Notes under the pieces: model-generated | Told to the model about the DNA's origin: nothing | Database searches by the model: none | Seen by the model: only the letters and a program-made list of their open reading frames with translations | IMG/VR virus record: IMGVR_UViG_3300029516_000004 | Location: 1-64,000 of that record | Reading direction: 5' to 3' (one strand) | DNA: 64,000 nucleotides | Origin: a virus | Taxonomy: Duplodnaviria > Heunggongvirae > Uroviricota > Caudoviricetes | Shown here: positions 4,631 through 62,311 of the stretch, piece by piece | Position numbering within the stretch: the first letter of the stretch is position 1 | How the letters are laid out: each line of letters opens with the position of its first letter | Program-made: the position numbers and the translations under genes

Positions 4631-4631
4631 C

Positions 4632-6551
4632 ATGGAACAGTTCAATATCAATAAAGGGGTGACGATCAAGCCCGGGCTTGACGTGCTTCCCCCGCCAGTG
4701 ACTGATGATGAATATCGCGCATTAATGGCCGGTGAGGACCGCTATCTGATGACGGAATCCAACACCCTGGAGGAAATCGAGGCTACGTTCTTCTATGACA
4801 CGCCGATCCACTGGTGTGCTACGGATTTACTGGAGGCGATTAGTTCTACTCGTTTGCAGTTACACCGGACCATGCAGGCATTTGTCCGGGCATTGAACCA
4901 GAAGCTGAATGGTACCGGAATCTCTGCGGGGAGTGATAAAACGGGGGATGTGGCCCAGAACGGTGCACGCGCGATCGGCGGTGCTGAAATTGGCCGGGCA
5001 CGTAACGTTAACGGGCTGCCGGTCCTGCCAGCCATTATTCCGCTCAGTGATGGTCAGACTATCAGTATTCTGTTTCATAGCCCGACAGCGGAAAACCGGA
5101 TCACCAATAGTGATACGCTGGTTGCTTTCCAGTTCTTACTGAATAAAAAAGACGTTACTCATACCGTTGCTCCGATGAGTGGACGTGATATGACGCTGGC
5201 GCAGGTCACCATGAAACTTGCCAACCTTGCAGAGAAAAACTCGGCAAAATTCCAGCGTGCGCAGAAGAAGAAAAAAGCCCTGGTTGATGAAATAACCCAA
5301 CTACAGGCTGACAGTGACCAGAAAGAGGATGCCATGAGCGACCTCGCGGATCAGGTGGCAGCGGTAGAAGGGCAGAAGGCAGATCTGGAGCAGAAAATTA
5401 ACGCTGTTGCATCGGAAGCGGATTCTCTTTATGAAGAGAATGAGCGTTTGCAGGGGGAGATTGATCGGCTCAATCGCACTGGTGGGCGCGATACCATTGC
5501 CCCTGCGGGGATGACTGGTGGACACTCTCGCGCGCTGACGGATCGCCTTGCCAGTATCAAAAATCGTATGCATATGGACGGGGAAGCGACGCTCAGTAAT
5601 GGTGCATCAATGAAGCAATTCATTGGGGATGGCGAAGGGTATATCCAGTTAACCGATCCGGATGGCAGCGTATACATGATCAAGGCTAAATCCATACAGG
5701 GTGTGGACATGGCAGATGCGCTCGGCAAGCTGTTTAAAGCCTATAAAGCGGGTAATGTATCGGAATATATGGTCCAACCAGAAGAACATAAACCGGAAAA
5801 CGTCGAACCTGAACCAGCGGAAGATACCGGTAGCTCTTCGCCTGAACCAGAAGTCTCTGTAGGTGCATATCGATATGCCCTGCAAATGCGCCCGGCGGCC
5901 CCTGGCGCAATACCTGAAGGTAACAAAGCAATTCTGCCGCGCCCTGATGAGGGTGACCCGTATTATGAATATGCACGCTACGGCATTGCTACTTACGATA
6001 CCCCGCTTTCTGATCAGCAAATGAGTGCGTACGACCTGAAGTTATTGCCTCGCGAGGATTCTTTCGACTTCCTTGCGAAGACACTTACTAATGGTCCGTT
6101 TGGCAAATATGCACAAAAAGCTCTGGAGCTGGCCACCAGCTCACCAGACGAGTTCCGCGTAATGCTGAAAACTCAGTTTCAAAAAACTTTCCCCAATATT
6201 GCGTTTCCTGGTGGCGCTGGCACCGAGAAAATGGTGCAGAGCATGATCAATGCATTGCAGGCCGAAGTCGGTGAGATTACTCAGCCAGAACCGGCCCCGG
6301 CACAGCCTGATGAAACGGTTAGCGAAGCAGATGCAGAGGCTAATAAAGCCATTGAATATCTCAATAACGTGATGGATATGCAAAGCACTGACATGGCGGA
6401 GATCCGTAACGCCCGGGGCAATGTCCGGGAAGCGATTGCAGCCCTTCAGGCTGCCGGACGTTTTGAGGAAAACGAAGAGCTGGTTAATGGCGCTGCTCGC
6501 CACCTGGCTGATCTGCTGGTAGCAATCCAGAAAGCGGGGGTAGCGGCATGA
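4632..6551 (+). CDS. darA: DarA-like antirestriction capsid protein
   Basis: 639 aa, size and operon position as P1 DarA; AGGA RBS; internal coiled coil. Confidence 0.6.
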   Translation: MEQFNINKGVTIKPGLDVLPPPVTDDEYRALMAGEDRYLMTESNTLEEIEATFFYDTPIHWCATDLLEAISSTRLQLHRTMQAFVRALNQKLNGTGISAGSDKTGDVAQNGARAIGGAEIGRARNVNGLPVLPAIIPLSDGQTISILFHSPTAENRITNSDTLVAFQFLLNKKDVTHTVAPMSGRDMTLAQVTMKLANLAEKNSAKFQRAQKKKKALVDEITQLQADSDQKEDAMSDLADQVAAVEGQKADLEQKINAVASEADSLYEENERLQGEIDRLNRTGGRDTIAPAGMTGGHSRALTDRLASIKNRMHMDGEATLSNGASMKQFIGDGEGYIQLTDPDGSVYMIKAKSIQGVDMADALGKLFKAYKAGNVSEYMVQPEEHKPENVEPEPAEDTGSSSPEPEVSVGAYRYALQMRPAAPGAIPEGNKAILPRPDEGDPYYEYARYGIATYDTPLSDQQMSAYDLKLLPREDSFDFLAKTLTNGPFGKYAQKALELATSSPDEFRVMLKTQFQKTFPNIAFPGGAGTEKMVQSMINALQAEVGEITQPEPAPAQPDETVSEADAEANKAIEYLNNVMDMQSTDMAEIRNARGNVREAIAALQAAGRFEENEELVNGAARHLADLLVAIQKAGVAA

Positions 6552-6913
6552 CACTATCAGCTATTGAGTTAATGGATCTCAGCGATAAGTTGGATGCTCT
6601 GATGTCCAAAGCGGCTACCGCGAGTGGCATGGAGTTGCTGGATATCAGCGATGAAATTGACCAGATCATGCAACAGATGGGGTACGGCGCGTCCGGCGGC
6701 AGTAGTGGCGAGGAAAAACAACCTTCGGTACATGATGGTGTGCCAAAACTGGTTGCTGATTTCCTGGCTGATAAATTCGTCGATCAGAGCACTGATGCAT
6801 TTATCGGTACGTTACAGGACTTGAGTCAATATGTTGGTACATACATCGACCTGGACCAGGTTAAACAGCACACGGCGGCATGGATAGCCGCCAACATTAA
6901 AGAGGCAACATAA
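6548..6913 (+). CDS. ddrA: DdrA-like protein
   Basis: 121 aa, start overlaps darA stop (ATGA); position. Confidence 0.45.
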   Translation: MTLSAIELMDLSDKLDALMSKAATASGMELLDISDEIDQIMQQMGYGASGGSSGEEKQPSVHDGVPKLVADFLADKFVDQSTDAFIGTLQDLSQYVGTYIDLDQVKQHTAAWIAANIKEAT

Positions 6914-6925
6914 GGCGTAACAGGG

Positions 6926-9913
6926 ATGAGCTTAAGCGATCAGGTGGTAATGGCCACCAGCATAGAAACGCTGATCGAGCTGCTAAAAAACCTGCCCGAT
7001 TACGGGCGGGTTTCGTATGTGGTGACAGCGAAGGGAGACGAGGTAAAAACAGCGTTTGATATCGTCGATGCCTCAGCTCTTTTGGTATCCAATACTCTGG
7101 ACGGGAAAATTAACCCTGACTATCCCCAGGAACTTCAGCCGCGTGACCGGACCCGCGCATCCAGTCTTCTTCAGGTCAACCAGATATCCAAGGATTTGCG
7201 TCCTGCCCAGCTTACCGATTCCGGTTTATCCAGCCATGGCGCGCCGATAATTGGTGAGGACAATGCCGTTGAGTCAGGTAATGGACGGACCATGGGGATC
7301 ATCAAAGCCTATCAGGACGGCAATGCGGATCGGTATCGTGAGTACCTGATTGATCATGCGACAGAATTCGGCATACGACCTGAAAAGGTTGAATCAATGG
7401 CGGCTCCGGTACTGGTGCGCCGCCGGTTAACGAAGGTTGACCGTGTTCAGTTTGCCAAGGACTCAAATATTTCTGATCTCCAGGAAATGGCAGCCAGTGA
7501 AAAGGCTTTTGTTGATGCCGACAGCATAACACCGGCGATGATGGCGTTGTTTAACCCGTCAGAAAGCGGAGATCTGCTTAGCCGCAGTAATGACGCGTTT
7601 ATTCGCGGATTCATGACGCAAGTTGGTGCCACACAGGCTGCTGGCCTTGTAACGGAAGATGGGCGACCAACACGGCAACTTGTAGACCGTATACAAAACG
7701 CGATCTTTGCCAAGGCATATAAGGATGCGCGCCTGGTAAGGATGGTTGCAGAAGAACCTGATCCGGATATGCGTAATGTTCTGACGGCACTTAATGCGGC
7801 AGCCAATGATTTTGTCCAGATGCAGGCTTTATCAGGAGAAGCGCACAAGCAGGCTGTGACAACTATTGTTGATGGCATTGAGACAGCGGATAGCCTCGAT
7901 AAAAAGGCGCTGGCGGCATTGAAAGATGCGGTAGACCTGGTAAGGCAATCGAAGGAGTCAGGCCAGCATATTACCGATGTTATTGCTCAGGGGGATATGT
8001 TCAGCGAAACGGCCCCGGAAGTGAAAGCACTCGCGTTGTTCATCGTCGCGAATAACCGTAGTGCGAAGCGTATGGCCACCGCCTTTAAGTTGATGGCGCA
8101 ACGTATCAATGATGAGTTACAGCACCAGGGCCAGGCGCTCGGGGATATGTTTGGCGGCGGCGATGTGTCGTTACAGGATATCCTTCGCCAGGTGTCTCAG
8201 GAACTGGAAAACGAAGGTATGCAAGGGATATCCAGCGGTCTTTTCGAGTCAGCTTCCGGCGGTAGTTACAACGGTGTTGCTCCATATACCAGCTTGCTAT
8301 TACATCGGGCATCCGGCATCAAAGACATTATTCATCTGATCAGGCTGCTATCCCGCACCGATCGCCAGGATGAGCAGCTTGTACAAGTGCTTGCGCATTT
8401 TGTCCGAATGCCTGTTGCCGACGTGAAAAAATGGTGCCGATTATTCGGTATCAGCAATTCGTTACTTCGCGGATTGTTAAATCACGCATCCTCCCTTGGG
8501 CGCGATGGCTTTGATGAGATAGCGCAGGCGATACAAAACGGAGATATGCCACCAGCTATTGACTGGTTTTCCATTCGCCCAACCAGGGTGAAAGCATTCC
8601 TTAGCGCGGCGCAATCAGCATCACCATTGGCAGAAATGGTTCAGAGGTTGTCGCTCATATTCACAGATCATACCGCGTTGGGTGATCTGACTCTTGACGA
8701 GATGAAAGAAGCCTCCATTCAGTGGGCCGATCAACAAAATGAGGTTAACTCAGACTTCTTGCCAGCATTCAGGAAGGCCGTTAGTAAAGCGGATGATGCC
8801 CGTGGAATTCTGAAGGCATTTAAGGCATTGCAAAGTCGGGTTAATAAACATGTCGGTGATATCGATGGGGTAACGGCGGAAGGCAGGGATATCCTTAAAG
8901 AGCACGGCATAACGCCAGAGTTTATTGATGAGATCAGGACGGATATGCAGCGTGAGGTCGTATCGTCCCTGCAAATTGTAGCCAGAGCGTTGGCGGATGC
9001 TAATCCGAAGAGTGCGGCCATTGTTAACCGGGTTATTGGTGATATTGAAGCATCGGAGGGCATGGGGGCGCTGAAACTCTTCCTTTCGCGAGCGTTTAAT
9101 CCTAACGGCAATATTCTCCCTGGCATTATTGGTGAGGCTAAAAAGTATGTCAGTGAAGAAGAACTTGAGCAGCTTGACCAACTACTTAAGCGATTCTCAT
9201 ATAACCCGCAGACACGCTGGCAAATGAATCAGCGAAGTATGGGTTCGGTCCACGAGAAAGTGTTATCTGCCATGAACAGTGCGATCGCAAACTCATCCGT
9301 ATCTGAAGAAAAAGCTCTTGAGTGGGCCGACTCTTTTATCACGGAAGAAGTGGAAGAAGCCCGCGCTGGACAGAATGGTGGGATAGACCTGCGCAAGGAA
9401 CTTGCTGATATTTATCGCCTGACCGGCGGGAAAATATCGACCTTATCAAAGGTGGTTCACCACCAGGGAAGGGCATATGCAAATCTAAATGGTGTTGTTG
9501 CTGTCAATTTGAACGATAAAAATGCAAGTGCACTGTGGCACGAGCTGGGTCATCATCTTGAGTACAGTAACCCTGGTTTGTTAGAGAAAGCCCGGTCATT
9601 CCTGAAGGCCAATGTTGAAGGGGATAAGCCATCATTCGTCAATATCGGTGGGCGTGGCAAGCCTGAATGGTGCTTCAGATCTCGATTGAGTAATATTTAT
9701 ATGGCGAAGGTATACCCGCCAGCCTCAGTGAGTAATTCCGGGAAAATTCGGCAGAAATCACCGACTATTTCCAAAACGTCAGCAACGGAAGTATTCTCTA
9801 TGGCTCTTCAGTTGTATCATGACAAAGAGGCCGCTGCCGCATCACTGATGAATGGTGACGGATTGCTGGAACTGTTATTAGGTGTGGCAAAGGAGCTAAA
9901 TAATGCAGATTAA
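6926..9913 (+). CDS. ddrB: DdrB-like protein
   Basis: 995 aa ORF following ddrA; size and position as P1 DdrB. Confidence 0.55.
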   Translation: MSLSDQVVMATSIETLIELLKNLPDYGRVSYVVTAKGDEVKTAFDIVDASALLVSNTLDGKINPDYPQELQPRDRTRASSLLQVNQISKDLRPAQLTDSGLSSHGAPIIGEDNAVESGNGRTMGIIKAYQDGNADRYREYLIDHATEFGIRPEKVESMAAPVLVRRRLTKVDRVQFAKDSNISDLQEMAASEKAFVDADSITPAMMALFNPSESGDLLSRSNDAFIRGFMTQVGATQAAGLVTEDGRPTRQLVDRIQNAIFAKAYKDARLVRMVAEEPDPDMRNVLTALNAAANDFVQMQALSGEAHKQAVTTIVDGIETADSLDKKALAALKDAVDLVRQSKESGQHITDVIAQGDMFSETAPEVKALALFIVANNRSAKRMATAFKLMAQRINDELQHQGQALGDMFGGGDVSLQDILRQVSQELENEGMQGISSGLFESASGGSYNGVAPYTSLLLHRASGIKDIIHLIRLLSRTDRQDEQLVQVLAHFVRMPVADVKKWCRLFGISNSLLRGLLNHASSLGRDGFDEIAQAIQNGDMPPAIDWFSIRPTRVKAFLSAAQSASPLAEMVQRLSLIFTDHTALGDLTLDEMKEASIQWADQQNEVNSDFLPAFRKAVSKADDARGILKAFKALQSRVNKHVGDIDGVTAEGRDILKEHGITPEFIDEIRTDMQREVVSSLQIVARALADANPKSAAIVNRVIGDIEASEGMGALKLFLSRAFNPNGNILPGIIGEAKKYVSEEELEQLDQLLKRFSYNPQTRWQMNQRSMGSVHEKVLSAMNSAIANSSVSEEKALEWADSFITEEVEEARAGQNGGIDLRKELADIYRLTGGKISTLSKVVHHQGRAYANLNGVVAVNLNDKNASALWHELGHHLEYSNPGLLEKARSFLKANVEGDKPSFVNIGGRGKPEWCFRSRLSNIYMAKVYPPASVSNSGKIRQKSPTISKTSATEVFSMALQLYHDKEAAAASLMNGDGLLELLLGVAKELNNAD

Positions 9914-16625: not shown

Positions 16626-19600
16626 ATGAACAAGCTATCTATGGGGGTGTTTCGCTGTTCAAGTGTCAGCGAAATATTGAAATACATTAGGGCAATAACA
16701 TCTCACCGAGCGCCGATTAAATACGGCGTGGAAAAGGTGGAAGGCAAAAGCTATGACCGACTGCGCCGGGAGGCGAATCAGAAGGCGATAGATTTGCTTA
16801 ATTCGCTGGTGGACGGCGCGACACTGACAGATGAACAGCGCCAGATCCTGGCTGGGTACACCGGTGAAGGCGGCATTGGCGGGTCCGTCTCCGAATATTA
16901 CACACCAAAGCCGATCGCTGAAGGTGTCTGGGAGATCATGAAGCTCTACGGCGCGGACGTAGGTAACACTCTGGAACCATCGGCGGGCACCGGCGTTTTT
17001 AATGAGACAAAACCGGTTGGTACGGTGATGACCGCGACTGAGATCAGCAGTGTTTCCGGTCGTATAAACCAGCTGTTACATCCGGAAGACAGCGTACAGA
17101 TTTCCCCGTTCGAACAGCTGGCTGTAAGCACGTCTAACGATTCATTCGACCATGTTGTGGGTAACGTTCCGTTCGGCGGTCGTGATAACACACGCAACAT
17201 CGATAAGCCTTACGCAGAAGAAACGGACATGGGTTCTTACTTCATGCTCCGCATGCTGGACAAGATAAAGCCTGGCGGATTCATGTGTGTGATTGTGCCG
17301 CCGTCCATTGTTTCAGGTTCAAACATGAAGCGGTTACGCCTGCGCCTATCACGGAAAGCTGAATTTCTTGGCGCTCACCGCTTGCCTACCGGTACTTTTG
17401 ACGCAAACGGGACCAGTACGGTCGTAGATGTGGTGCTGATGCGCAAACATCCGGCAGAGATGGCTGAGAAAATCCCCCTGGTGGATGAAAGCACTCTTGA
17501 ATCGGCAAATGTGCTTTGGCCAACGTTTATTTCTGGCAAGTGGTTTGAAAAGGACGGCCGCCGGTTTGTTCATGGCACCCAGGAGAAGGGATTCCAGGGG
17601 CGTATTGAGGTTCGTGCCGACGGGCAGATTGATAACCAGGATCTTAAAGCGAAGCTGATTCATCGTTTCGAAAGTCGTATCGACTGGTCTTTGCTCGATA
17701 TGGCTGAACCGTCACCGACCGCAGATGTTGTTGATGAAGGGGAAATGCGCCTGATTAATGGCGTATGGCAAAAATATGCTGGTGGTCGCTGGATTGAAGC
17801 TGATGCTGGTAAGGAGCTTAAGATTGATGCTGCCAGTTATGGCGCGGATAGCTGGGAGGCTCTTCAGCGTAACCTGACTACAACAGAAGGCCGTCTCGGT
17901 ATGACATTTACCCAGATGGCAAATGTCCGCGATAAGTACACCACATCAATCAGCGACGATATGGTGCAGCTGGTGGACTGGATTAACAGCCAGCCTGAAA
18001 AATACCGTGAACGCTTGTATCGTGGGGCGATGATTGGCCGGATGTTAATTGAATATCAGGATATGAAGGCCGCCGGGCATAGTGCTGAACAAATCGAACA
18101 GCAGCGCCTTTCTCTGGTGTCCCGTTTGCAGGCAGAGATTGACCGTTTTGGTAACCCCGGTCGCGGTCCGATAGCTAAATTATCGGGAAGCGGTGCGCGC
18201 GCCTGGTTTGCTTTCCGTGGTGCAATTAAGCTGGATGGCACTATTTCTGACGAGCTAACAGGAAAGCTGGTTACGCATGATTCCAGCGCCAGTTATGACT
18301 CCACCAGCTATCAGGACACCCTGCGTTATCTCTATAGCGATCTTACCCGCGATCCAATCCAGCTCGATGATTTCCGCCTTGCGTTTACCGGCGAACTGCC
18401 AGCCAGTGATGAAGAGTTGCTTAATTTATTGGCCAGCACCCCTGGTATTGCGGTTTCACCGTATGGCGGGATTGTTCCGTTCGCCCGCGCCACCAGCGGC
18501 GACATTAACGAGATAGTGGCTCCAAAACAGGAATTCCTTGCCACACTCCCCGACGGTCCAGTAAAGAACAACGTCCTTAATCAGCTGGCAGCGATCGAAG
18601 AGAAGCGCATCAAGACGCCAGCAGAGAATATCCGCTTTAAGCTCAATAGCCGTTGGTTCGACCGCTCCGTCATTCTGGAGTTTTTGCAGGAAAACGGCTA
18701 TCCGGATCTGCGCTATGTGCAGTCAGTGCAGCTGGAAGGCGACGAAATGGTTTCTGACACCTATCACGGTGGTGATGGTCTGTTCGTCGGGCACCGATAC
18801 GGTGTCGTCCAGCGCAAGGATAAAGAAACAGGCGAGATCCGCTACGAGTGGGACCGTAAATCAGGTGAAAACGCGACCGGGTTCCCGGCACAGCTGGAAA
18901 AGTATCTCAATGGTGCGCGTATCGGTGGCAAAGATAGCGCGACGGCGAACGGCTACCGCGAGCAGATGGCACTGCTTGAGGACCAGTTCAATAAGTGGAT
19001 CAAGACGCACGATCGCTACGATGAGCTGGTTGCCAAATACAACGATGTGTTCAATAGCAATATCCCGTATGAACACTCTGGCGATCCGCTTGGGTTGAAG
19101 GGATTAAGCGGTAAGCGCCAGCCATTTGATTACCAGAATAGCGAGGTGCGCCGACTGTCCGAAGATGGGCGCGGCATCCTGGGCTTCGGCACCGGGCTGG
19201 GTAAAACCACGACCGCGCTGGCGCTTGAGGCGTTCAACTATGAGAACGGTCGCTCTACCCGTACTGCGTATGTAGTGCCTAAATCAGTGCTGGAAAATTG
19301 GTATTACGAAGCAAAAGAATTCCTGAGTGAAGAGGCATTCAGTAACTACTTGTTCGTCGGTCTTGATGTGCTGATGGATGGCGATCAGATTCGCCAGGTG
19401 CCGGTGCTCGATGAGAACGGTAAACCTGTTCTTGGTACTGATGGCACTCCAGTTATGCACGATGCTCTTAAGCTGGCAGATGAAGCCACTATCACGGCGC
19501 GGATGAACGCGATCCCGCACTCAAATTACCGTGCAGTCGTGTTTACCAAAGAACAATACGCCCGCATTCCGCTACGTGATGACACCGTAGATGAGCATGC

Positions 19601-22600
19601 ACAAGACATGCTTTATGACTTCGTTGCCGCCGGGCGCGTAGCCAGCGCAATGGACTCCGACTCCCACCGCAAAGAGGCGGCGCGTCGCCGGGTATTGTCG
19701 GAGTATTCAGATACCGGTACCGAAAAAGCAGAGAAGTATCCGTACTTTGAGGATATGGGCTTCGACAGCGTGATTGCTGACGAAGGCCACAACTACCGCA
19801 ATAGCTATAAAAATGGTCGCGAAGCGTCACAGCTGGCCTATCTGCCCACCAGCGCGGTGGCGCAATCGGCGCGAGATATGGCAATCAAAAACGCGTACTT
19901 GATGAAAAAGAATGGCGGGCGCGGACCGGTTCTCCTGACTGCAACACCAGTCGTTAACACCCCGATCGATGCATACAACATGCTTTCTCATGTTCTGCCG
20001 AAGGAATACTGGCAGAAGATGGGGATCTACAGTCCTGATGACTTCGTAAAATTCTTCGGCAAGACCAGGCTGGAAACGGTACAGAAAATCAGCGGCGAAG
20101 TTGAAGAAAAAATGGCGCTGGTGGGTTTTGAAAACCTTGATGCGCTGCGCGGCATATTCCATCGCTGGACAACGCTTAAAACGGCGGAAGACGTTAAGGA
20201 TACCGTGGAGATCCCGGAACTGGACGAACACCAGCAGGATGCACCACTTACTGAAGAACAACTGGCGGCGTATGAAGAATTGCGTCAGCAGGCGGAAGCG
20301 GCGGCCAAAGCCAACAATGGTGTAACGACCTCGGTCAATGAAGACGGCGTGATTGAGCACGAGAAAGCCCGTCCGATCTTCTCAATAATCAGGGATATGG
20401 ACCGCGTATGTACTGACATGGACCTGTACTATCGCCGGATCACCTATCGTTTCCTGCCGGAGTACGCCGATGCGGTGCAGCAGCTGGCGGACAGTTTGCC
20501 TAAACAAGCCACCAGCGAAGACGACGACAGTGATGATTCAATCACGCAGCAATCGCAATACTCCCTGATAGATAAGGGCGAGTTTATTCAGTTGCAGGTT
20601 CCGGAAGCGTTCGAGCAGGAAGTGAATAAGCGCCTGGCCAGGTTTGGCATTGACGAACAGACCGTAACTCACCCCGTTACACCCAAATACGCGAAGCTGA
20701 TCGCCACGCTGAAGGAGTTTTTCCCGGAAGGTAAGCAAATCATCTTCACGGACGAAAAAACGCAGCACCAGAAGCTCAAGCGCATTATCTGCAATGCTCT
20801 TAACCTTGAACCTTCAAAGGTGGGGATCCTGAATGCTCAGACGGTTGCCGAGGCAGGTAAAACCGGTAAGAAACTGAAAGCGGTTAAACCGCCGAAAGAG
20901 TTACCGGATGAACCAACAGATGCACAGATAGCGAAATACAACGAGCAAATGGCTCTGTATGACGCCTATATCGCGCAGCAAAATGAAATGTCGTTGGGCG
21001 GTCTGGAAAAGATTGCAGCCGACTTCCAGGAGGGCCGGACTCCTATCATCATCTGCAACAAAAAGGCAGAGGTGGGTATCAACCTGCATCGAGGAACAAC
21101 TGACATCCATCATCTGACGTTGCCATGGACACCAGCCAGTATCGCACAGCGTAACGGTCGCGGTGCCCGAGTTGGCTCCAACCGTGCAAGCGTTCGCGTT
21201 CATTACTACTGCGGCAAGGGTTCTTTCGATGAATACCGACTGAAGACGCTGAAGCGTAAAGCAGGCTGGATCTCCGATATCCTCCGTTCAGATAAGTCAG
21301 AAATGGAGAACGCCGACGCCAACGATATGATCGAAATGCAGATGTATACCGCTAAGGATGATGGCGAACGTCTGGCAATGATGCAGGTTCAAATGGATAA
21401 GGCGAAAGCCGCGCAACGCGCTCGCCAGAAAGAACAGGCTACTATCGACCTTCAGAACTACATCAAGGCGCAGCACGCAGCTGGCGAGGATGTGGAGGTA
21501 CTTACCGCTGAATTAGAGCGAAGCAAAGCGGAACTTGAAAAGACCACCGCCGAGGTAGCTAAATTCAAACAGGCGGTAATGGCCAAAGCAGCTGATAACG
21601 CAGACTGGAAGGCCCGCTGGGGTAGCGTCCATCACACAGACCGTACGTTGTTAGCACAGTATCGCGCGTCGTTGAAAAGCGCCATTCAACGCAAGGCTAA
21701 TATCTCTCAAGCCATCTCCCGCTATGAGAAATTATTGAACCGTACTCAGAAGGCCGCGACGGATATCAAACGCCTGCGCCCACTGGTGGAGGATGCAATA
21801 AATAAAGGCATTCTGGATGTTGATCCTGATCTGGTTAACCATGCGAATGAGTTCCTTGTTATCGGCGATCGCTCATGGCGTGTAGGCCAATACTACGATT
21901 GTGCCGGTGATATCGTTCGTATTAAGTCGCTGGACTTCGACAGCCAGCGCGCAGACGTGGAGATCATCTTTACCTTCAAAGGCACAAAATCTGGTAACTG
22001 GGATGTGAAGACGCTGGATAAACAGGTTGATGTAACTCCCGATGAAGATGCTGTTATGCAGAAAATCAGTGGTGGCGTCTCCATCGCCGGGATTAACGAC
22101 ATCATTTCCTGTGACGATTTCTACCGTTTCCAGCAGCGCGGCATGATCAAAATCACTGACTCATACGGCGTTCAGACTACAGAGTCAGGCTATAGCATTG
22201 ATTTTGTTGGTACCTATACGGACCCACTGAAGCATGCGGTTTACCCGGATCGCCGTGACGGCGCGCTGAAGTCGTCAATTGCAAAATGGGTGCTTGGTAT
22301 GATGTCGGAAGGGAATAACCGCCAGGTCCGTTTGGCAGAAGTATTCCTGACTGAACTGTTTGGCTCCAATTATGGCGATGTAATCGCGTCATACGGAGAT
22401 ACGCTATCTCCTGAAGCAATTCAGGAGAAAATAGCGGATGCGATCGCCAGAATGCCGGAGAAAACAAGCCAGGGGGCTACTCGTAACGGGGATTCTGAAC
22501 TTGAGGTCACCAATGCTATTTTCGGTACCCATGAGTTCCGGGCGTCAGATTATGAGATCACCACAGCACAGTTTGGCACCATTGGCATTTACAGCAATAA

Positions 22601-23393
22601 AGCCGAGATCAAGCAGGCAATGGACGCAGCAAGCGCGCGCATCGCAGCAGAACGGGAAGCCAATCTGAATCATGCAGTCGCCGCACTGACTCAATCGTGG
22701 GTAACAGCAATCAGGGAGGCCGCCACCACAGGGAAAATCACACCTGCAATTGCGGATGTCGTAAACGACGGCTCTAAATTTATGGATGCCTATCAAATGG
22801 ATGCGGTGAAGTTGCCATCAGCCTATGGTCAACTCAGCTATCGCATGACCTACAACCTGGTATCAATGTTTTCCGACCTTGCCATCCTCGGGCTGGTGTA
22901 TCTTAACGAGGTTACGCCGGAATTGCTCAGCATGCGCAAGAATCATGTGGAGATATTGCAGAGAATTAACACGGTTCTTGCCGGGCGCACCGATGAAGAG
23001 AAACAGGCCGACGCTGATCGGATAAACCTGGCCCTTGGCAACATCACGGAGGAAGAAATTGCCGCCAGAAACGAGAAACAAGAAGAGTTATCATCAATAC
23101 ATGGTGATGCCACCAGCATAGCTCAGTCTCTTGGTCTGAATTATCGCGTATCCACCGCCGACCTGAAGATGATGTACGCACCAAAATTCGCCGCTGGCGA
23201 GGTATTTGGGCTTCAGGAAGCCTCAGGCATGAAAGGCGTTCTTTTCCGTGCGAAAGACGCAATCAAGGCGAAATTCGGCGCTCGCTGGCTGCCAGCGAAG
23301 GCGAAGAACAGCGATTTCCCGGGTAACTGGTGGATTATCGAGACAAAAAACAACGTGGCGGACGTTCTGGCCGTCATCCAACAATACGCATAA
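16626..23393 (+). CDS. darB: DarB antirestriction protein (N6-adenine methyltransferase fused to SF2 helicase)
   Basis: 2255 aa; methyltransferase motif VGNVPFGG; helicase Walker A GFGTGLGKTT and DEGH box VIADEGHNYRN; length as P1 DarB. Confidence 0.85.
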   Translation: MNKLSMGVFRCSSVSEILKYIRAITSHRAPIKYGVEKVEGKSYDRLRREANQKAIDLLNSLVDGATLTDEQRQILAGYTGEGGIGGSVSEYYTPKPIAEGVWEIMKLYGADVGNTLEPSAGTGVFNETKPVGTVMTATEISSVSGRINQLLHPEDSVQISPFEQLAVSTSNDSFDHVVGNVPFGGRDNTRNIDKPYAEETDMGSYFMLRMLDKIKPGGFMCVIVPPSIVSGSNMKRLRLRLSRKAEFLGAHRLPTGTFDANGTSTVVDVVLMRKHPAEMAEKIPLVDESTLESANVLWPTFISGKWFEKDGRRFVHGTQEKGFQGRIEVRADGQIDNQDLKAKLIHRFESRIDWSLLDMAEPSPTADVVDEGEMRLINGVWQKYAGGRWIEADAGKELKIDAASYGADSWEALQRNLTTTEGRLGMTFTQMANVRDKYTTSISDDMVQLVDWINSQPEKYRERLYRGAMIGRMLIEYQDMKAAGHSAEQIEQQRLSLVSRLQAEIDRFGNPGRGPIAKLSGSGARAWFAFRGAIKLDGTISDELTGKLVTHDSSASYDSTSYQDTLRYLYSDLTRDPIQLDDFRLAFTGELPASDEELLNLLASTPGIAVSPYGGIVPFARATSGDINEIVAPKQEFLATLPDGPVKNNVLNQLAAIEEKRIKTPAENIRFKLNSRWFDRSVILEFLQENGYPDLRYVQSVQLEGDEMVSDTYHGGDGLFVGHRYGVVQRKDKETGEIRYEWDRKSGENATGFPAQLEKYLNGARIGGKDSATANGYREQMALLEDQFNKWIKTHDRYDELVAKYNDVFNSNIPYEHSGDPLGLKGLSGKRQPFDYQNSEVRRLSEDGRGILGFGTGLGKTTTALALEAFNYENGRSTRTAYVVPKSVLENWYYEAKEFLSEEAFSNYLFVGLDVLMDGDQIRQVPVLDENGKPVLGTDGTPVMHDALKLADEATITARMNAIPHSNYRAVVFTKEQYARIPLRDDTVDEHAQDMLYDFVAAGRVASAMDSDSHRKEAARRRVLSEYSDTGTEKAEKYPYFEDMGFDSVIADEGHNYRNSYKNGREASQLAYLPTSAVAQSARDMAIKNAYLMKKNGGRGPVLLTATPVVNTPIDAYNMLSHVLPKEYWQKMGIYSPDDFVKFFGKTRLETVQKISGEVEEKMALVGFENLDALRGIFHRWTTLKTAEDVKDTVEIPELDEHQQDAPLTEEQLAAYEELRQQAEAAAKANNGVTTSVNEDGVIEHEKARPIFSIIRDMDRVCTDMDLYYRRITYRFLPEYADAVQQLADSLPKQATSEDDDSDDSITQQSQYSLIDKGEFIQLQVPEAFEQEVNKRLARFGIDEQTVTHPVTPKYAKLIATLKEFFPEGKQIIFTDEKTQHQKLKRIICNALNLEPSKVGILNAQTVAEAGKTGKKLKAVKPPKELPDEPTDAQIAKYNEQMALYDAYIAQQNEMSLGGLEKIAADFQEGRTPIIICNKKAEVGINLHRGTTDIHHLTLPWTPASIAQRNGRGARVGSNRASVRVHYYCGKGSFDEYRLKTLKRKAGWISDILRSDKSEMENADANDMIEMQMYTAKDDGERLAMMQVQMDKAKAAQRARQKEQATIDLQNYIKAQHAAGEDVEVLTAELERSKAELEKTTAEVAKFKQAVMAKAADNADWKARWGSVHHTDRTLLAQYRASLKSAIQRKANISQAISRYEKLLNRTQKAATDIKRLRPLVEDAINKGILDVDPDLVNHANEFLVIGDRSWRVGQYYDCAGDIVRIKSLDFDSQRADVEIIFTFKGTKSGNWDVKTLDKQVDVTPDEDAVMQKISGGVSIAGINDIISCDDFYRFQQRGMIKITDSYGVQTTESGYSIDFVGTYTDPLKHAVYPDRRDGALKSSIAKWVLGMMSEGNNRQVRLAEVFLTELFGSNYGDVIASYGDTLSPEAIQEKIADAIARMPEKTSQGATRNGDSELEVTNAIFGTHEFRASDYEITTAQFGTIGIYSNKAEIKQAMDAASARIAAEREANLNHAVAALTQSWVTAIREAATTGKITPAIADVVNDGSKFMDAYQMDAVKLPSAYGQLSYRMTYNLVSMFSDLAILGLVYLNEVTPELLSMRKNHVEILQRINTVLAGRTDEEKQADADRINLALGNITEEEIAARNEKQEELSSIHGDATSIAQSLGLNYRVSTADLKMMYAPKFAAGEVFGLQEASGMKGVLFRAKDAIKAKFGARWLPAKAKNSDFPGNWWIIETKNNVADVLAVIQQYA

Positions 23394-23426: not shown

Positions 23427-23867
23427 ATGGCCACACTATCTGATACAATAAAACCGAATAAAACATATCTTGAGGCGGTACTCCGTACAGCGTTGTTAGG
23501 AAAGACAGAAGACGAATACGTTGATTTCTTCCTGTCAGGGCTACGCGGGCGATTAATGAAAAATCCCCGCCTGTACCGCAGCTATGGTCCATACTGGCCG
23601 GAAATTAAAAAATTATTACTGGAGCGCGGTTATGGTAATTTCGGTCGTCTCGTTGACCGTGACGTTCGCAAAATTTACCGTTATGACCGCCCGGCGCTAA
23701 CACTCATAGCCGCGACGCTCTACAGCCAGGAGCGTTTTGATAATGGTCAGATATACTCAGCCTGGCATTTACTTCCAGTGCCTGAAGAAGTTGACGACCA
23801 GGACTATGAGTTTGAGTCTTACGATTTGGAAGTTGAAGCCTTGGCACAGTCTGGAGAGAAAACTTGA
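23427..23867 (+). CDS. Ulx-like protein
   Basis: 146 aa ORF between darB and the lxc candidate. Confidence 0.4.
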   Translation: MATLSDTIKPNKTYLEAVLRTALLGKTEDEYVDFFLSGLRGRLMKNPRLYRSYGPYWPEIKKLLLERGYGNFGRLVDRDVRKIYRYDRPALTLIAATLYSQERFDNGQIYSAWHLLPVPEEVDDQDYEFESYDLEVEALAQSGEKT

Positions 23868-24112
23868 AAAAGCGATACTACACAGTAAAGCATGGGACGC
23901 TACGAGCATTACAAGAGTTTGCTGACAAGCATAACGTTGAGGTGCGCAGGGAAGGGGGAAGTAAAGCTCTGCGCATGTACCGTCCTGACGGAAAATGGCG
24001 GACGGTCGTCGATTTCAAAACAAACAGCGTTCCCCAGGGCGTCCGCGACCGGGCATTCGAAGAATGGGAGCAGATCATCATAGATAATGCTCTGCTACTA
24101 AATGCTGACTGA
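23864..24112 (+). CDS. lxc: Lxc/Bof-like C1 co-repressor
   Basis: 82 aa basic protein; size and position. Confidence 0.5.
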   Translation: MKKRYYTVKHGTLRALQEFADKHNVEVRREGGSKALRMYRPDGKWRTVVDFKTNSVPQGVRDRAFEEWEQIIIDNALLLNAD

Positions 24113-24130
24113 GTTTAATATTACAATATT

Positions 24131-24163
24131 ATCTGGGAGATAAATGCATCTTATTTCCCAGAT
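24131..24163. terminator. Hairpin at the convergent lxc / AraC-gene junction
   Basis: atctgggagataa-atgcatc-ttatttcccagat. Confidence 0.35.
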
Positions 24164-24885
24164 GATAACTGATGTTTTGCATATTCACATGGTGTACAAT
24201 TATAATACTGCCTAAATAGGTACACAAAGTACGATATACTACTAAAACCACAACTTTCTGATACTTGTTTGAGGGGGCAGTTTTGCTTTAGTAATTTAAT
24301 AGCAAAAGCCATCCGTGTATCAAGTAATAACTTACTGAAGGAGGTGTTTTCTAATAATAGTTTTTTCTTTATTAAACTCTCACTCATGTATAGATAATCA
24401 GTTAAATCTCTTAGTTTCCAATGTTTAGATACATCTGAAAGAAATATGCTGCGTACTTTCCCTGAGAAAGTAGGCATGCCAGACGTAAGAAAAGCTCTAA
24501 GGTTGTCAACATCACTAAAAATTGAAAGTAATGAAAAAGTTAAAGCATCCTTAAAATCAGGATGTATATGATTCTGGTCACTTATATTATCGATCATCCT
24601 GATTAATAAATCAGGATAAGCAAAAGACTTTTTTAGCAAATGTGGGCATTTATCTAGAAGTTGCTTCCCTTGGTGATTGTGACAAGATAAATAGTTTCTT
24701 ACAGCACTATCATTAAGTTCGAATTCGATATATTTATCTGAATAGGTTTGTAAGAATTCGCGTTCAGAATGTTTAAGCAACAGCACATCACCATAATTTA
24801 ATATTAAGAAATCCTTAAGAAATTGAAAATTTATCGGTTTCTTTATAAGGATGAAGTAACAGACTCCTGACATAGCTACCACCAT
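24151..24885 (-). CDS. AraC/XylS-family transcriptional regulator
   Basis: C-terminal double HTH (LRDLTDYLYMSESLIKKKLL...VSESCGFSSISYFVYLFRQYYNCTPCEY); markedly AT-rich. Confidence 0.8.
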   Translation of the reverse strand: MVVAMSGVCYFILIKKPINFQFLKDFLILNYGDVLLLKHSEREFLQTYSDKYIEFELNDSAVRNYLSCHNHQGKQLLDKCPHLLKKSFAYPDLLIRMIDNISDQNHIHPDFKDALTFSLLSIFSDVDNLRAFLTSGMPTFSGKVRSIFLSDVSKHWKLRDLTDYLYMSESLIKKKLLLENTSFSKLLLDTRMAFAIKLLKQNCPLKQVSESCGFSSISYFVYLFRQYYNCTPCEYAKHQLSSGK

Positions 24886-25107
24886 TCTAAAGAGGCTTTG
24901 AACAAGAATAGAGATACAGCAGCACTGAAATCAAGAAGTTGTGCAAAAAATAAAAATATTGATTTGTGTCACAGTTGCTGCTTTTTATTATTGAATTTTT
25001 ATCAATTTCACTACAGATAAATAAATTGACATAGTGTGTAACCCCTGTAAATATAAAGGGCACTTTATCTGCTAAAGCCAACCAATTTAAAAATAGAGGG
25101 TGGGAGC

Positions 25108-25797
25108 ATGGAAGTTATCTACATAGTAGAACCAATCATTTCCACAAGCACTAACAAGTTGATAGCAGTGGAAGTGTTGAGCAGATTTTATTCCAACGAG
25201 GGGGCTATTCTTTCTACTCAGAAAGTATTAGGTATGTTTACAAGCAAGATGAAGATTAACTTGCTAAAATCTCAACTTAACACAATAATCAAATATAAGT
25301 ATTTTTTTGAATGCCATAATATATTATGCTCTATCAATGTAGATTATGATACCTGTTTATATATATATGGCAATAAACAAATTCAAGAACTACTAATAAA
25401 CAATAAATTTATAGCGATTGAGATATCAGAAAACTATCCTGATTTTAGCGATGAGGATTACATCATATCCTTTCTACTGACTTTGACAGATAATGTTTGG
25501 CTTGATGATTTTGGAAGTGGTAACGCCACCATGAAAGCATTAATTAAAAATAAATATCATGCAATAAAACTTGATAAGTCATTTTTTCAAGAGCATATGA
25601 TTAAGCCTCATTTTGATGTCATTATTAGCAATTTAAAAAAGTTATGTCCGAATATCATCGCTGAAGGCGTCGAAAACATTGATTGTCATAAGTTATCAAA
25701 AGGGATAGGGCTATGGGGCGCTCAGGGATATTTTTTCCCATCAATTCCGCTGACGGAGATTGAGTCCATAGATAGTAAGTGGCTATCAGATTTATGA
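25108..25797 (+). CDS. Stand-alone EAL-domain protein (putative c-di-GMP phosphodiesterase)
   Basis: EVL motif (AVEVLSRF), DDFGSG, KLDK, EGVE and GAQGYFF motifs in order; GAGGGTGGG RBS; AT-rich. Confidence 0.8.
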   Translation: MEVIYIVEPIISTSTNKLIAVEVLSRFYSNEGAILSTQKVLGMFTSKMKINLLKSQLNTIIKYKYFFECHNILCSINVDYDTCLYIYGNKQIQELLINNKFIAIEISENYPDFSDEDYIISFLLTLTDNVWLDDFGSGNATMKALIKNKYHAIKLDKSFFQEHMIKPHFDVIISNLKKLCPNIIAEGVENIDCHKLSKGIGLWGAQGYFFPSIPLTEIESIDSKWLSDL

Positions 25798-25850
25798 GAT
25801 GCAGAGAGTTAGGATATTGATATGAACATCTAAGCACCTCATTACTGTGC

Positions 25851-26495
25851 TTAAAAGATGTTATCCTTACCTGTTAATTTACCTTGAGGAACTTTAGCGA
25901 GCTCCATACGATAAAATGCTTTTATCATATTTACAAATGGCTCATATGGTGAATATTCGTTGTCTTGTTTAGTAACGGTGTCTGTCATTGTCCTGATGTA
26001 GTCTGCGCTTACCACGTTGTTGTATTCTGTTGCGAAGCAGCATAACAACGTCAGAACATGCTCTGTCGTTATTTCGCTCCAGTTGATGTTGAAAAACTCA
26101 TCGCCTTTTTTATCGTGTTCGGAATCGAAGATGCTTTGGTGGAGGATGTATTTGCCGGATTCCTTGCGCGGTAACTTGATCGCTTTCTGGCGTTCCAACT
26201 CCTTGTAAATCTGCATTGCTTCAATTAGTACCGGCCTGCCGTTCATGAAGGGATCGCGCAACCTTACACGCTGGCCAACTCGACCGGTAATAAAGCTGTT
26301 TTCCTCTTCCACCAGCACGATAAAACCCTTTTCCTCTTTTTCTCGCAATTCGCGCAGCAGCTGGAGTTCCATATCGCGGCGGCGTTCAGGGTAGCTGGTC
26401 CGATCAGCCATTATCAGCTCGTTATTGATCCATGCAGCAGTCATTGACGCCGGTTTGCCGACGCTCATCGAAACAACGCATATTTTCTTATCCAT
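25851..26495 (-). CDS. Hypothetical protein (Mat position)
   Basis: 214 aa from ATG 26495 after GTAGGGGG; no recognised motif. Confidence 0.5.
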   Translation of the reverse strand: MDKKICVVSMSVGKPASMTAAWINNELIMADRTSYPERRRDMELQLLRELREKEEKGFIVLVEEENSFITGRVGQRVRLRDPFMNGRPVLIEAMQIYKELERQKAIKLPRKESGKYILHQSIFDSEHDKKGDEFFNINWSEITTEHVLTLLCCFATEYNNVVSADYIRTMTDTVTKQDNEYSPYEPFVNMIKAFYRMELAKVPQGKLTGKDNIF

Positions 26496-26684: not shown

Positions 26685-27074
26685 TTAGTGCATGATGTTT
26701 GCCATTTCATAGGCGTCAGCCAGCAACTCCATCTCTGACTTGTTCAGCAAGGTGAATTCTTTCTTGCTTCCAACCACACCATCTGCATGAACAGGGACCA
26801 GCCAGGGGTATTTTTCTCTTACTTCAGCCGGTGCTGCATGCTGGTGGTACCATCTACAAAGTGGCAATTGCTTTTTGTGACAACCCGGCGCGGTACGACC
26901 GGCGATATGGTGCAGAGACACCTCATTAGATATTACTCCAGGCATATAGCAGGCAATGCAGGGGAGAGCGCCAAGAGCATTGGCGATGCGCCGTTCCTCC
27001 GTCGTTGGTGGGCTCCGTTTGGGAAACGGAAGATATTGTACGTTAAGATGATTTTTTGTACTGGCTGACATCAA
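26685..27074 (-). CDS. HNH-family nuclease-like protein (possible Ref homologue)
   Basis: Cys/His pattern CIAC...SLHHIAG...CHKKQLPLC. Confidence 0.45.
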   Translation of the reverse strand: MMSASTKNHLNVQYLPFPKRSPPTTEERRIANALGALPCIACYMPGVISNEVSLHHIAGRTAPGCHKKQLPLCRWYHQHAAPAEVREKYPWLVPVHADGVVGSKKEFTLLNKSEMELLADAYEMANIMH

Positions 27075-27289
27075 TAAGCCTTAAAGGACGATACTTCCTT
27101 TCAATGCGTCAGATCTGTACCCGCTTTCAGCAGACATATTCCTGAAACCTGAGAGCCAGAAGAATGGCCTGATATCATCCAAATATGGCATTATTTCAGT
27201 GGCAGGCAGGCCTGATTTAATCATAATTATCACATTAGGCCATCATGATATGGCTCTGATGGTTATTAACCAATACAGGACTTGCTAAA

Positions 27290-28066
27290 ATGAAGATCAT
27301 CCAGGTACGTAACGCCACACAACTCATTTCTTACGCTGGTAAAAAATTTCTTGTCGATCCGATGCTTGCGAAAAAAGAAGCCTATCCGGGATTCGAAGGA
27401 ACGGCCCGGTCAGATATCCGCATCCCGATGACTGAGCTGCCTTTTGACCTTGATGTACTGCTGGATGTGGATGCCATTATTGTCACCCACACACACCCTG
27501 ACCACTGGGATGAAGCGGCTGTTGCGCACATCCCGAAAGATAAACTGATTTATGTTCAGAATGAACATGATGAAAAGATCCTGCGTTCCCAGGGCTTCAG
27601 CAACCTTGTTATTCTGTCTGACAAAAGCACATTTGGCGAAATTTCACTTATTAAAACCGTTTGTCAGCATGGTTCGGACGAAGCCTATGCTAACCCGCAA
27701 CTCGCAGCAATCCTTGGGGATGCCTGTGGGGTGGTCTTCCAGCATCCGTCCGAAAAAACGCTCTATCTGGTCGGGGATACCATCTGGATCAAGGCTGTAG
27801 AGGATAATTTACGTCGGTTCAATCCTGGCGTCGTTATTATGAATACGGGCTGGGCGCATGTTCTCGGATTCGGCCCCATTATTTTCGGCAGGGAAGATGT
27901 CCTGAAAGCCCATCGTATCGTACCAGAGGCACTGATTGTGGCAACGCACATGGAGGCCGTAAACCACTGTCTGCTGACCCGTCAGGAACTGCTGGAATAT
28001 GCCCGCGATAACCAGATCCAGGCGTCAGTTGCCGTTCCTGCTGATGGTGAATCAGTTACGATTTAA
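27290..28066 (+). CDS. MBL-fold metallo-hydrolase
   Basis: THTHPDHW metal-binding motif and downstream His/Asp residues. Confidence 0.8.
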   Translation: MKIIQVRNATQLISYAGKKFLVDPMLAKKEAYPGFEGTARSDIRIPMTELPFDLDVLLDVDAIIVTHTHPDHWDEAAVAHIPKDKLIYVQNEHDEKILRSQGFSNLVILSDKSTFGEISLIKTVCQHGSDEAYANPQLAAILGDACGVVFQHPSEKTLYLVGDTIWIKAVEDNLRRFNPGVVIMNTGWAHVLGFGPIIFGREDVLKAHRIVPEALIVATHMEAVNHCLLTRQELLEYARDNQIQASVAVPADGESVTI

Positions 28067-28081
28067 CCCGGAGGCCATGGC

Positions 28082-29071
28082 ATGTCCACCATCACTGTCG
28101 CTATAGTGATCACCGAAGGGTTCAGTACATTTCATGTCTCCGTTCCACTAATCCTGTTCGGGGAGATACTGGAAGGGAAGGCTCTCTTCAGCCGCCGGGT
28201 ATGTGCGGAAGAGCCCGGGCTTATCTGGTCTGCTGAAGGTACGGCGATGAGGGCAGAATACGGGCTTGATGCACTGGCAGAGGCCGATATCGTTATTATT
28301 CCTTTCTGGAAACACATCCATGAAAGGCCTTCTGAAACTCTGCTCAGTGCCCTGGTTGCAGCCTGGAAAAATGGAGCTCAGGTGGTGGGCCTGTGCCTGG
28401 GGAGTTTTGTTCTGGCTTACACCGGTCTGCTGGATGGTAAACGGGCGGCCACGCACTGGGAGGCTGAACGGGATTTCCAGATGCTTTTCCCGGCGGTTCA
28501 TCTGGACGTGAACGTGCTTTATGTTGAGGACGAGCGGATTATCACCTCAGCCGGTACAGCCGCAGCACTGGACTGTTGTCTCCATGTGATCCGGCAACGC
28601 CTGGGCAGATATACGGCTAATCAAATAGCCCGCCGGATGGTTGCTCCTCCTTACCGGGAAGGCGGACAGGCACAGTACCGGCAACTGCTTATTCCCAAAA
28701 GTACGTCCGATAACCGCATAAACCAGCTGCTGGAATACCTGTCCGCAAATCTGGGATTACCACATGATATTGACACTCTGGCCCATTTAGCCTCCATGAG
28801 CCGAAGAACGCTTACACGCCATTTTCATTCGGCCACAGGAATGACGGTCTGGGAGTGGATCACCACAGAGCGTCTCCGGCGGAGTCAGGAACTGCTGGAA
28901 AGTACAGATATTGCAGTGGAGCGGGTTGCCGAACTGGCAGGCTTTCAGTCCACCATTACTTTCCGGCAGATATTCCGGCAGCGGATGGGAGTCAGTCCCA
29001 GTGAATGGCGAAAAACATTTAACGGAACGCCGGAAGGCAATATTCCGGCAGGTAAAGAAACTGAAAAATGA
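28082..29071 (+). CDS. GlxA-family regulator (DJ-1/PfpI domain + AraC HTH)
   Basis: N-terminal DJ-1-like fold with GLCLGSF; C-terminal AraC HTH (MSRRTLTRHF...FQSTITFRQIFRQRMGVSPSEWRK). Confidence 0.85.
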   Translation: MSTITVAIVITEGFSTFHVSVPLILFGEILEGKALFSRRVCAEEPGLIWSAEGTAMRAEYGLDALAEADIVIIPFWKHIHERPSETLLSALVAAWKNGAQVVGLCLGSFVLAYTGLLDGKRAATHWEAERDFQMLFPAVHLDVNVLYVEDERIITSAGTAAALDCCLHVIRQRLGRYTANQIARRMVAPPYREGGQAQYRQLLIPKSTSDNRINQLLEYLSANLGLPHDIDTLAHLASMSRRTLTRHFHSATGMTVWEWITTERLRRSQELLESTDIAVERVAELAGFQSTITFRQIFRQRMGVSPSEWRKTFNGTPEGNIPAGKETEK

Positions 29072-29079
29072 GGTGCAAT

Positions 29080-29481
29080 ATGTCTGTTGAAGAAAATATC
29101 AAAACGGTTAAAAAGTTTTATCGTCTGATTGAAGAAAATAAATATGATGAGGTGAAAAACCTCTGCCATCCGGATTTTAAATTCTATTCTCAGGTGGATA
29201 CACCGCTGAACAGTGAGCAGTTTATCGTACAGGAAAAAGGCCATATGGATGCTTTTCCGGGATTTACAATGCGTATCCACGAAATCTTTGCCAGAGACGA
29301 TAAAGTCGCCTGCTATCTTATCTTTGAAGGCGTGCAGACCCGTGAATTCCTTGGGCATCCTGCCAGCGGCAGGAAAGTGCGCTTTTCTCTGATGTTTATG
29401 ATCACTCTGAAAGACGGGAAATATATAGAAAAACGGGCTCATTATAATACAGCGGATATCCTCCGGCAGTTGTCAGCCTGA
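29080..29481 (+). CDS. SnoaL-like / ester cyclase family protein
   Basis: 133 aa, NTF2-like pattern (VKKFYRLIEEN...DFKFYSQ...); translationally coupled to upstream regulator. Confidence 0.6.
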   Translation: MSVEENIKTVKKFYRLIEENKYDEVKNLCHPDFKFYSQVDTPLNSEQFIVQEKGHMDAFPGFTMRIHEIFARDDKVACYLIFEGVQTREFLGHPASGRKVRFSLMFMITLKDGKYIEKRAHYNTADILRQLSA

Positions 29482-32537: not shown

Positions 32538-32554
32538 GTTGTTTGACAATTGCT
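32538..32554 (+). promoter_or_regulatory. C1 operator-like site
   Basis: attgctctaataaatta, 16/17 to ATTGCTCTAATAAATTT. Confidence 0.7.
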
Positions 32555-32803
32555 CTAATAAATTATAGTTTTGCCGCCGTTTCGTAATACGACTTTGGAT
32601 TCACTATTTAATGTGTCTTCAGCGTTGTAGAGCGGCTCAGAAGGAAATGAGCAAACAGGGAAACCTTATACAACGGCATTACAGCTATGCATTGCTCATC
32701 TTACACACAGCGCAATGTTGTTAGATTACCCCAGCATGGATCATGGGTGAAACAGTAGGTCAGAGCTTCAGGCTCTGTGTTGTCAATACAGTGAGGCATA
32801 ATT

Positions 32804-62294: not shown

Positions 62295-62311
62295 AAATTT
62301 ATTAGAGCAAT
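62295..62311 (-). promoter_or_regulatory. C1 operator, perfect consensus, heading the tRNA-tci-ban transcription unit
   Basis: Minus strand reads ATTGCTCTAATAAATTT 17/17; overlaps dmt stop codon. Confidence 0.8.

Follow-up and report, generated by a model that had tools for sequence, protein, structure and literature searches.

An AT-rich AraC-EAL gene pair in the lxc-mat slot of a P1-like phage-plasmid as a candidate lysogenic-conversion cassette

The DNA analysed here (hereafter the window) comprises 64,000 nucleotides, positions 1 to 64,000 of IMG/VR record IMGVR_UViG_3300029516_000004, and by gene content and order belongs to a P1-like phage-plasmid. Between its lxc and mat genes lies an AT-rich cassette of two divergent genes, one encoding an AraC/XylS-family regulator and the other a stand-alone EAL-domain protein with all canonical catalytic residues in place. 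The pair is probably, if far from certainly, a lysogenic-conversion cassette, the effector of which would be an active cyclic di-GMP (c-di-GMP) phosphodiesterase accompanied by a dispensable local AraC activator. The cassette is uncharacterised and its two genes are of known kinds, the EAL phosphodiesterases that stand alone and the AraC accessory genes carried by phages. Literature searches pairing P1-like elements with EAL or c-di-GMP found nothing relevant. The components of the cassette are as follows.

24151-24873, minus strand: AraC/XylS-family regulator gene of the YdeO/Rns type, intact, 240 amino acids (aa)
24874-25107, no strand: divergent intergenic control region, GC 0.33
25108-25797, plus strand: stand-alone EAL gene, 229 aa, predicted active c-di-GMP phosphodiesterase

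The open reading frames (ORFs), their strands and their Pfam assignments bear out the divergent AraC regulator and 229-aa EAL protein described in the initial annotation, which had also held the EAL motifs to be intact. The protein matches the Pfam EAL family (PF00563) across residues 8-210 with 64.7 bits against a cutoff of 31.3 (E-value 1e-17). The catalytic residues were checked in a HMMER alignment to YahA/PdeL and a MAFFT alignment with PdeH, YdiV, STM1697 and SfaY, and no key residue is substituted. All 11 canonical catalytic and metal-binding residues (E22, R26, N77, E105, E108, D133, D134, K154, E186, E189 and Q206) are identical to those of the active enzyme PdeL/YahA, and L24 is likewise canonical; the motifs E..L.R, N, ExxE, DD, K, EGVE and QG are present. 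The catalytic columns are invariant in 17 family members, including SfaY/PdeY, at identities as low as 23%. Residues E105, D133, E186 and R26 are absent from both YdiV and STM1697, and YdiV additionally lacks K154 and D134. The full set of 11 is retained by 35 of 77 relatives that are likewise small and stand-alone; the clade of the window protein is one of the intact ones, while the YdiV and STM1697 clades represent independent degenerations.

The AlphaFold2 (AF2) model of the EAL protein has a mean predicted local distance difference test (pLDDT) score of 91.6 and a predicted template-modelling (pTM) score of 0.88, and adopts the EAL barrel fold. Foldseek returned YdiV as the top match (template-modelling (TM) score 0.88), followed by STM1697 and then YahA (0.78), the YdiV/STM1697 matches lying at TM 0.82-0.88 with a root-mean-square deviation of about 2 Å. 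There were 103 matching PDB structures at E<=0.001, and the best 50 of these 103 are all EAL or EAL-like domains. The best PDB sequence matches were again STM1697 (7.8e-28) and YdiV (1e-18), making these two, rather than PdeH or VmpA, the closest solved relatives. The protein thus has the compact architecture of YdiV and an active site of the PdeL type. The best NCBIfam match is the PdeH model (PRK11596; 1.2e-26), where 93.6 bits falls below the equivalog cutoff of 190. When 1.84 billion cluster representatives were searched exhaustively, only 12 reached E<=1e-30 and 90 reached E<=1e-10. In PHROGs, the EAL protein is assigned to phrog_32988 and the AraC protein to phrog_1450 (1.2e-67), both families being listed as of unknown function, and the database names for both proteins are generic.

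The ranking of STM1697 and YdiV at the top of both the sequence and the structure matches suggests another mode of action, in which the EAL protein works chiefly by protein contact. It could be an anti-FlhD4C2 factor, which would shut down flagellar genes, or a c-di-GMP-sensing ‘trigger enzyme’ gating, for example, the AraC protein. Binding of transcription factors by enterobacterial EAL proteins is established, as for YdiV/STM1697 with FlhD (PMC5622320), and the pairing of an EAL gene with a transcription-factor gene is conserved on an IncFII plasmid. YdiV (RflP) of E. coli and STM1697 of Salmonella share the compact single-domain architecture of the window protein, but their active sites are degenerate, and neither binds nor cleaves c-di-GMP (PMC5622320). 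The window protein, in contrast, keeps every residue they have lost, in an active site that is fully canonical and invariant across the family. Most of the residues through which the two proteins contact FlhD also differ, as judged from the published STM1697 list (F160, L172, L173, K175, H176 and others) and YdiV list (PMC5622320). Two of the 11 STM1697 contacts are identical, four are conservatively replaced and five (K175, H176, Y180, V115 and L116) non-conservatively. The identical ones are K167 and F160, of which F160 is a motif residue general to EAL proteins. One of the four YdiV contacts (F155, F168, F181 and A184) is identical and three differ, and contact position 171 varies even inside the protein's own family. 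The EAL gene, moreover, persists where its AraC partner is broken. Action through protein contact is regarded as unlikely.

Among characterised enzymes, PdeH (YhjH) of E. coli K-12 likewise consists of one EAL domain, is comparable in size and has canonical residues, and the predicted effect, a lowering of c-di-GMP, is the same. PdeH is only 25-26% identical to the window protein, which, as noted, falls below the PdeH equivalog cutoff, and has V at the R position of EALxR where the window protein keeps R. Unlike pdeH, the window gene resides on a plasmid/phage, is rich in AT and has an AraC gene as its partner. SfaY/PdeY and the other fimbria-linked EAL proteins of pathogenic E. coli are also small and stand-alone, have intact motifs and travel with adhesin loci, and overexpressed SfaY/PdeY was reported to work as a phosphodiesterase (PMC5635171). 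The window protein and SfaY share only 23% identity; in contrast to the fimbria-linked genes, the window gene sits in a phage-plasmid cargo slot with no fimbrial operon adjacent. The protein was also considered as one of PdeU1-3 (Cimdins et al.). This was rejected, as PdeU1-3 carry motifs of the Tn21 Urf2 type.

The regulator matches the Pfam families HTH_18 (1.2e-11, 45.2 bits) and HTH_AraC (1e-9, 38.7 bits), both over cutoff. Its ORF can be extended to an ATG at 24885 (24151-24885, 244 aa), while relatives begin at Met 24873 (240 aa). The NCBIfam YdeO model (NF007407) matches over the full length at 8.8e-45, with 153 bits falling below the equivalog cutoff of 348. K-12 YdeO is 34% identical over the full length and AppY is 39% identical to the C-terminal half. 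PDB matches include the DNA-binding domain of GadX (1e-20), Rns/CsvR (1e-18) and ToxT. The AF2 model of this protein is of low confidence (pLDDT 59) and too poor for a fold search. YdeO, AppY, PsrB and PatE are AraC/XylS regulators of acid-resistance circuits, several of them prophage-encoded, and provide a precedent for the window protein; prophage-borne regulators of this type (AppY, PsrB and PatE) rewire host physiology (PMC10057817). The window AraC gene differs from that group in its EAL partner, in a score short of the YdeO cutoff and in being a pseudogene in most of its natural copies.

The two genes are separated by a spacer of 222-234 bp, the range reflecting the two AraC starts. Blocks of this region are conserved in the IncFII and Ro157 versions of the pair. 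A TTGACA hexamer resembling a -35 element lies at ~25037, a promoter assignment that is tentative, and a Shine-Dalgarno sequence, GGGTGGGAG, precedes the EAL start. The P1 C1-operator consensus has no match within the cassette, so repression of the cassette by the prophage repressor is not expected. No RNA family was matched in an Rfam scan of 23800-26200.

In the proposed mechanism, the 229-aa EAL protein would be expressed from the plasmid prophage and would hydrolyse c-di-GMP to pGpG, the activity being predicted from its active site. This would lower the c-di-GMP pool of the host and, in the manner of PdeH, a stand-alone EAL enzyme encoded on the chromosome, would shift the lysogen towards motility and little matrix. 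The YdeO/Rns-type AraC protein would most likely activate its own cassette, opposing the silencing of 32%-GC DNA, and may also act on host genes. Its loss from the majority of natural copies shows it to be dispensable.

Relatives of both genes place them among regulators of adhesion and motility, which supports the proposed function. Distant EAL relatives (33-49% identity) are found closing a Pap-type operon, next to serine protease autotransporter (SPATE) genes and next to a chaperone-usher operon of Pantoea, those at the Pap-type operon end and beside SPATE genes being 45-49% identical. An AraC relative at 58% identity adjoins K88-type fimbrial subunits. Because distant relatives of each gene adjoin fimbrial or autotransporter loci, both genes come from regulator lineages that travel with horizontally acquired adhesin loci. 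A 206-aa gene next to an AraC relative of 49% identity was considered as an EAL partner and rejected, since it does not encode an EAL protein. Closer to the window, an IncFII plasmid carries a homologous pair (AraC 84% and EAL 66% identical) adjoining toxin-antitoxin and replication genes.

The cassette occupies the slot in which P1 carries res-mod, a position given in the initial annotation and confirmed by comparison with P1. The surrounding features are listed below.

16626-23393, plus strand: darB
23427-23867, plus strand: ulx
23864-24112, plus strand: lxc, the left flank, with its stop at 24112
24087-24112, plus strand: left boundary, where the final ~25 nt of lxc are of a variant linked to the cassette, from junction alignment
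24127-24167, no strand: hairpin with a 17-bp stem and 7-nt loop, 88% complementary (inverted repeat I2), from repeat search
25851-26495, minus strand: mat, the right flank, with its stop at 25851 and a truncated ref beyond it
25851-25984, minus strand: right boundary, a cassette-linked allele of the last ~44 mat codons, GC 0.34, from BLAST breakpoints

The hairpin lies where lxc and the AraC gene meet tail to tail and is a candidate bidirectional terminator.

The lxc-mat slot is a highly polymorphic cargo hotspot in P1-like elements and adjoins the anti-restriction genes darB and ulx. In P1 it holds the type III restriction-modification (RM) genes res-mod, and P1-type RM was found on ~57 plasmids; the res-mod region is already known as variable region 1, a low-GC region of P1-like plasmids (PMC9603915). 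SJ46 carries a 373-aa RelA/SpoT protein in the slot, which occurs in 14 genomes, matches PADLOC and is very probably CapRel-SJ46 (PMC9712102). A SIR2 occupant of defence type is present in 70 genomes and also matches PADLOC. Further cargos are PIN, DUF2971 and YaaC-family genes, a GNAT gene and an icd/ant duplication. The slot is empty (39 bp) in RCS47, and among 702 genomes it is empty or small in just 54. The AraC-EAL pair is the commonest identified occupant and the sole regulatory-type one. It shares its slot, its low-GC cargo character and recombination in the flanks with EcoP1I res-mod, SJ46 RelA/SpoT and SIR2.

With type III RM, probable CapRel, SIR2, PIN, DUF2971 and YaaC-family genes as alternative cargo and darB and ulx as neighbours, the cassette could instead be an inter-phage competition module acting by second-messenger depletion, a functional equivalent of its slot-mates. 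It might remove c-di-GMP-dependent receptors or surface structures, or hydrolyse a cyclic-dinucleotide immune signal as counter-defence. Two reports on phage N4 describe infection as requiring a c-di-GMP-controlled glycan (PMC8669469, PMC8669472). The N4 pathway is described as locally controlled, however, in one of these and a further source (PMC8669469, PMC10211494), and a global phosphodiesterase might not affect it. Whereas res-mod, RelA/SpoT and SIR2 are defence systems, neither the AraC nor the EAL protein matches any defence model in PADLOC-DB 2.0 (E<=0.01), and homologues of both genes occur on non-phage plasmids and at adhesin loci. A competition role is quite improbable, and it is made directly testable by the defence-rich slot; if true, the EAL enzyme would be a defence or counter-defence effector.

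The boundaries of the divergent block slightly exceed the interval 24113-25850 of the initial annotation, adding ~25 nt of the lxc end and ~134 nt of the mat end. On the left, similarity to P1, RCS47 and SJ46 ends within the last ~25 nt of lxc, where the window variant is common to OP279344 and Ro157c2YLVW and the other variant to P1, RCS47 and SJ46. On the right, BLAST similarity to the same three elements resumes at ~25985, ~134 nt inside mat. Alignment of the Mat C-terminus shows one allele in all three AraC-EAL lineages and another in RM, CapRel, SIR2 and empty-slot elements. The repeat search found no inverted or direct flanking or terminal repeats at the cassette. Their lack ruled out transposition as the route of mobility and points to exchange of cargo by recombination in the flanks. 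Homologous recombination between flanking sequences, and not transposition, is proposed to carry the cassette from one P1-like element to another and onto IncFII plasmids. Several distinct breakpoints were seen inside the mat 3′ end, as if every cargo carries its own Mat C-terminal allele.

The pair is present in 146 of 5426 complete E. coli genomes (about 2.7%), nearly always on plasmids, and in 151 PLSDB plasmids. The flanking P1 genes (ulx-lxc/mat) occur in 699-702 of these genomes, which places the pair in ~21% of P1-like elements; together with the empty slot of RCS47, this argues against a fixed backbone component. The same pair occupies the same slot in the laboratory P1vir stock OP279344 (98.6% identity; PMC10250240) and in phage Ro157c2YLVW (91.9%). 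OP279344.1 was deposited as ‘del res del mod’, yet in this record the AraC-EAL cassette replaces res-mod; some P1 stocks are hence natural variants at the slot and not engineered deletions. An apparently active phosphodiesterase is carried by about one-fifth of P1-like phage-plasmids of complete E. coli genomes and by at least one laboratory P1vir stock. Should the enzyme prove active, lysogeny of the P1 type would change how many clinical and animal isolates move and form biofilms, and perhaps how susceptible they are to other phages, and the cassette could be a hidden variable in P1-based experiments.

The sharp drop to AT-rich composition between lxc and mat was also upheld, with GC at 0.29-0.34 across ~24100-25900 versus 0.48-0.52 outside, and at 0.324 for the segment 24087-25985 versus 0.478 for the whole window. 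The recent foreign origin that had been read from this low GC does not stand. At least three diverged alleles of the cassette (83-99% aa identity) occupy the same slot of P1-like elements, and those at 83-86% protein identity have an intact AraC gene. Between alleles, the synonymous divergence (dS) of the cassette is 0.42-0.55, while that of the backbone (darB/ulx) is 0.04-0.05. This roughly tenfold excess across alleles in the same slot indicates that the cassette is old, and its linkage to its own mat C-terminal allele further contradicts a recent arrival. The ratio of nonsynonymous to synonymous divergence (dN/dS) between alleles is 0.09-0.16. Over wider comparisons, it is 0.08-0.16 for both genes at dS 0.4-1.6 (AraC 0.08-0.11; EAL 0.13-0.16), and both cassette genes are under purifying selection. 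The low GC marks foreign-type, probably H-NS-silenced cargo and not recency.

Several observations weigh against an active phosphodiesterase cassette under AraC control. The closest solved relatives by both sequence and fold are the non-catalytic, FlhD-binding STM1697 and YdiV, and the score against the PdeH model is about half its equivalog cutoff. Slot-mates are mostly defence genes, hinting at a different selective logic, and a promoter scan of the cassette gave nothing above chance. Natural copies of the pair are also frequently broken. One shared 1-nt deletion, corresponding to C24385 of the window (plus strand), is present in the AraC gene of ~98 of ~129 P1-type copies in complete E. coli genomes (~76%); it shifts the frame immediately before the DNA-binding domain, and its carriers stem from many hosts and countries. 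The window AraC gene belongs to the ~31 intact copies. In the P1vir stock (OP279344.1, locus 3752-5377), a 21-nt in-frame deletion removes part of the AraC helix-turn-helix. Ro157c2YLVW (NC_050153.1, locus 3727-4326) shows the reverse of most plasmids, with AraC intact and EAL frameshifted past the KLDK motif so that EGVE and QG are removed; this frameshift may be a sequencing error. Selection on the cassette, given these frameshifts and deletions, is not uniform.

Such decay fits the possibility that P1-like elements carry the cassette along in a largely neutral way, as what is left of the regulators of an adhesin island, slowly decaying on successful plasmid lineages. The spread of a single 1-nt deletion to most P1-type copies, the frameshifted EAL gene of Ro157c2YLVW and the scattering of AraC fragments in large resistance plasmids are all in keeping with it, and the P1vir stock with the in-frame AraC deletion still plaques (PMC10250240). 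A neutral passenger is nevertheless doubtful in view of the long-term dN/dS of both genes, sustained at dS up to 1.6, the invariant catalytic residues and the status of the pair as the commonest identified occupant of a rarely empty slot. The EAL ORF is annotated as intact in essentially all listed plasmid copies, and where AraC is frameshifted RefSeq still calls the EAL gene intact. EAL is the more consistently retained partner, and its persistence does not depend on the AraC protein.

Fragments and relatives were also noted in other records. A C-terminal AraC fragment lies in the resistance region of the 274-kb plasmid NZ_CP101211.1 (locus 6807-7628), where it adjoins a fragment of a metallo-beta-lactamase (MBL)-fold hydrolase gene and ramA; the full pair is absent there. 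A further 138 E. coli records match an AraC 45-mer at 91-93% and may hold similar fragments, NZ_CP101211.1 being the one large-plasmid record opened. Salmonella phage SJ1 (OQ595196.1, 24.5 kb, locus 6001-7470) carries the same EAL gene, annotated as ydiV, with IS1 at the AraC position. The SJ1 record was not relied on, as its gene coordinates abut without spacers and the annotation looks unreliable.

Across the whole window, the C1-operator consensus has 14 matches with <=3 mismatches versus 0.39 expected, for example at 62295-62311, 46668-46684 and 32549-32565. There is no match where P1 has Omat, beside the truncated ref. The 14 matches fit an intact P1-type immunity network.

A second cargo block (26685-29481) breaks up ref, of which a 129-aa ORF without its N-terminus remains at 26685-27074. 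This block encodes a SaxA-like isothiocyanate hydrolase (27290-28066; PDB 6brm, 1.2e-92), a GlxA-type DJ-1/AraC regulator (28082-29071) and an ‘ester cyclase’ ORF (29068-29481). It is also found in P1-like plasmids with SIR2 in place of AraC-EAL, and because of this co-occurrence it is regarded as independent of the AraC-EAL cassette.

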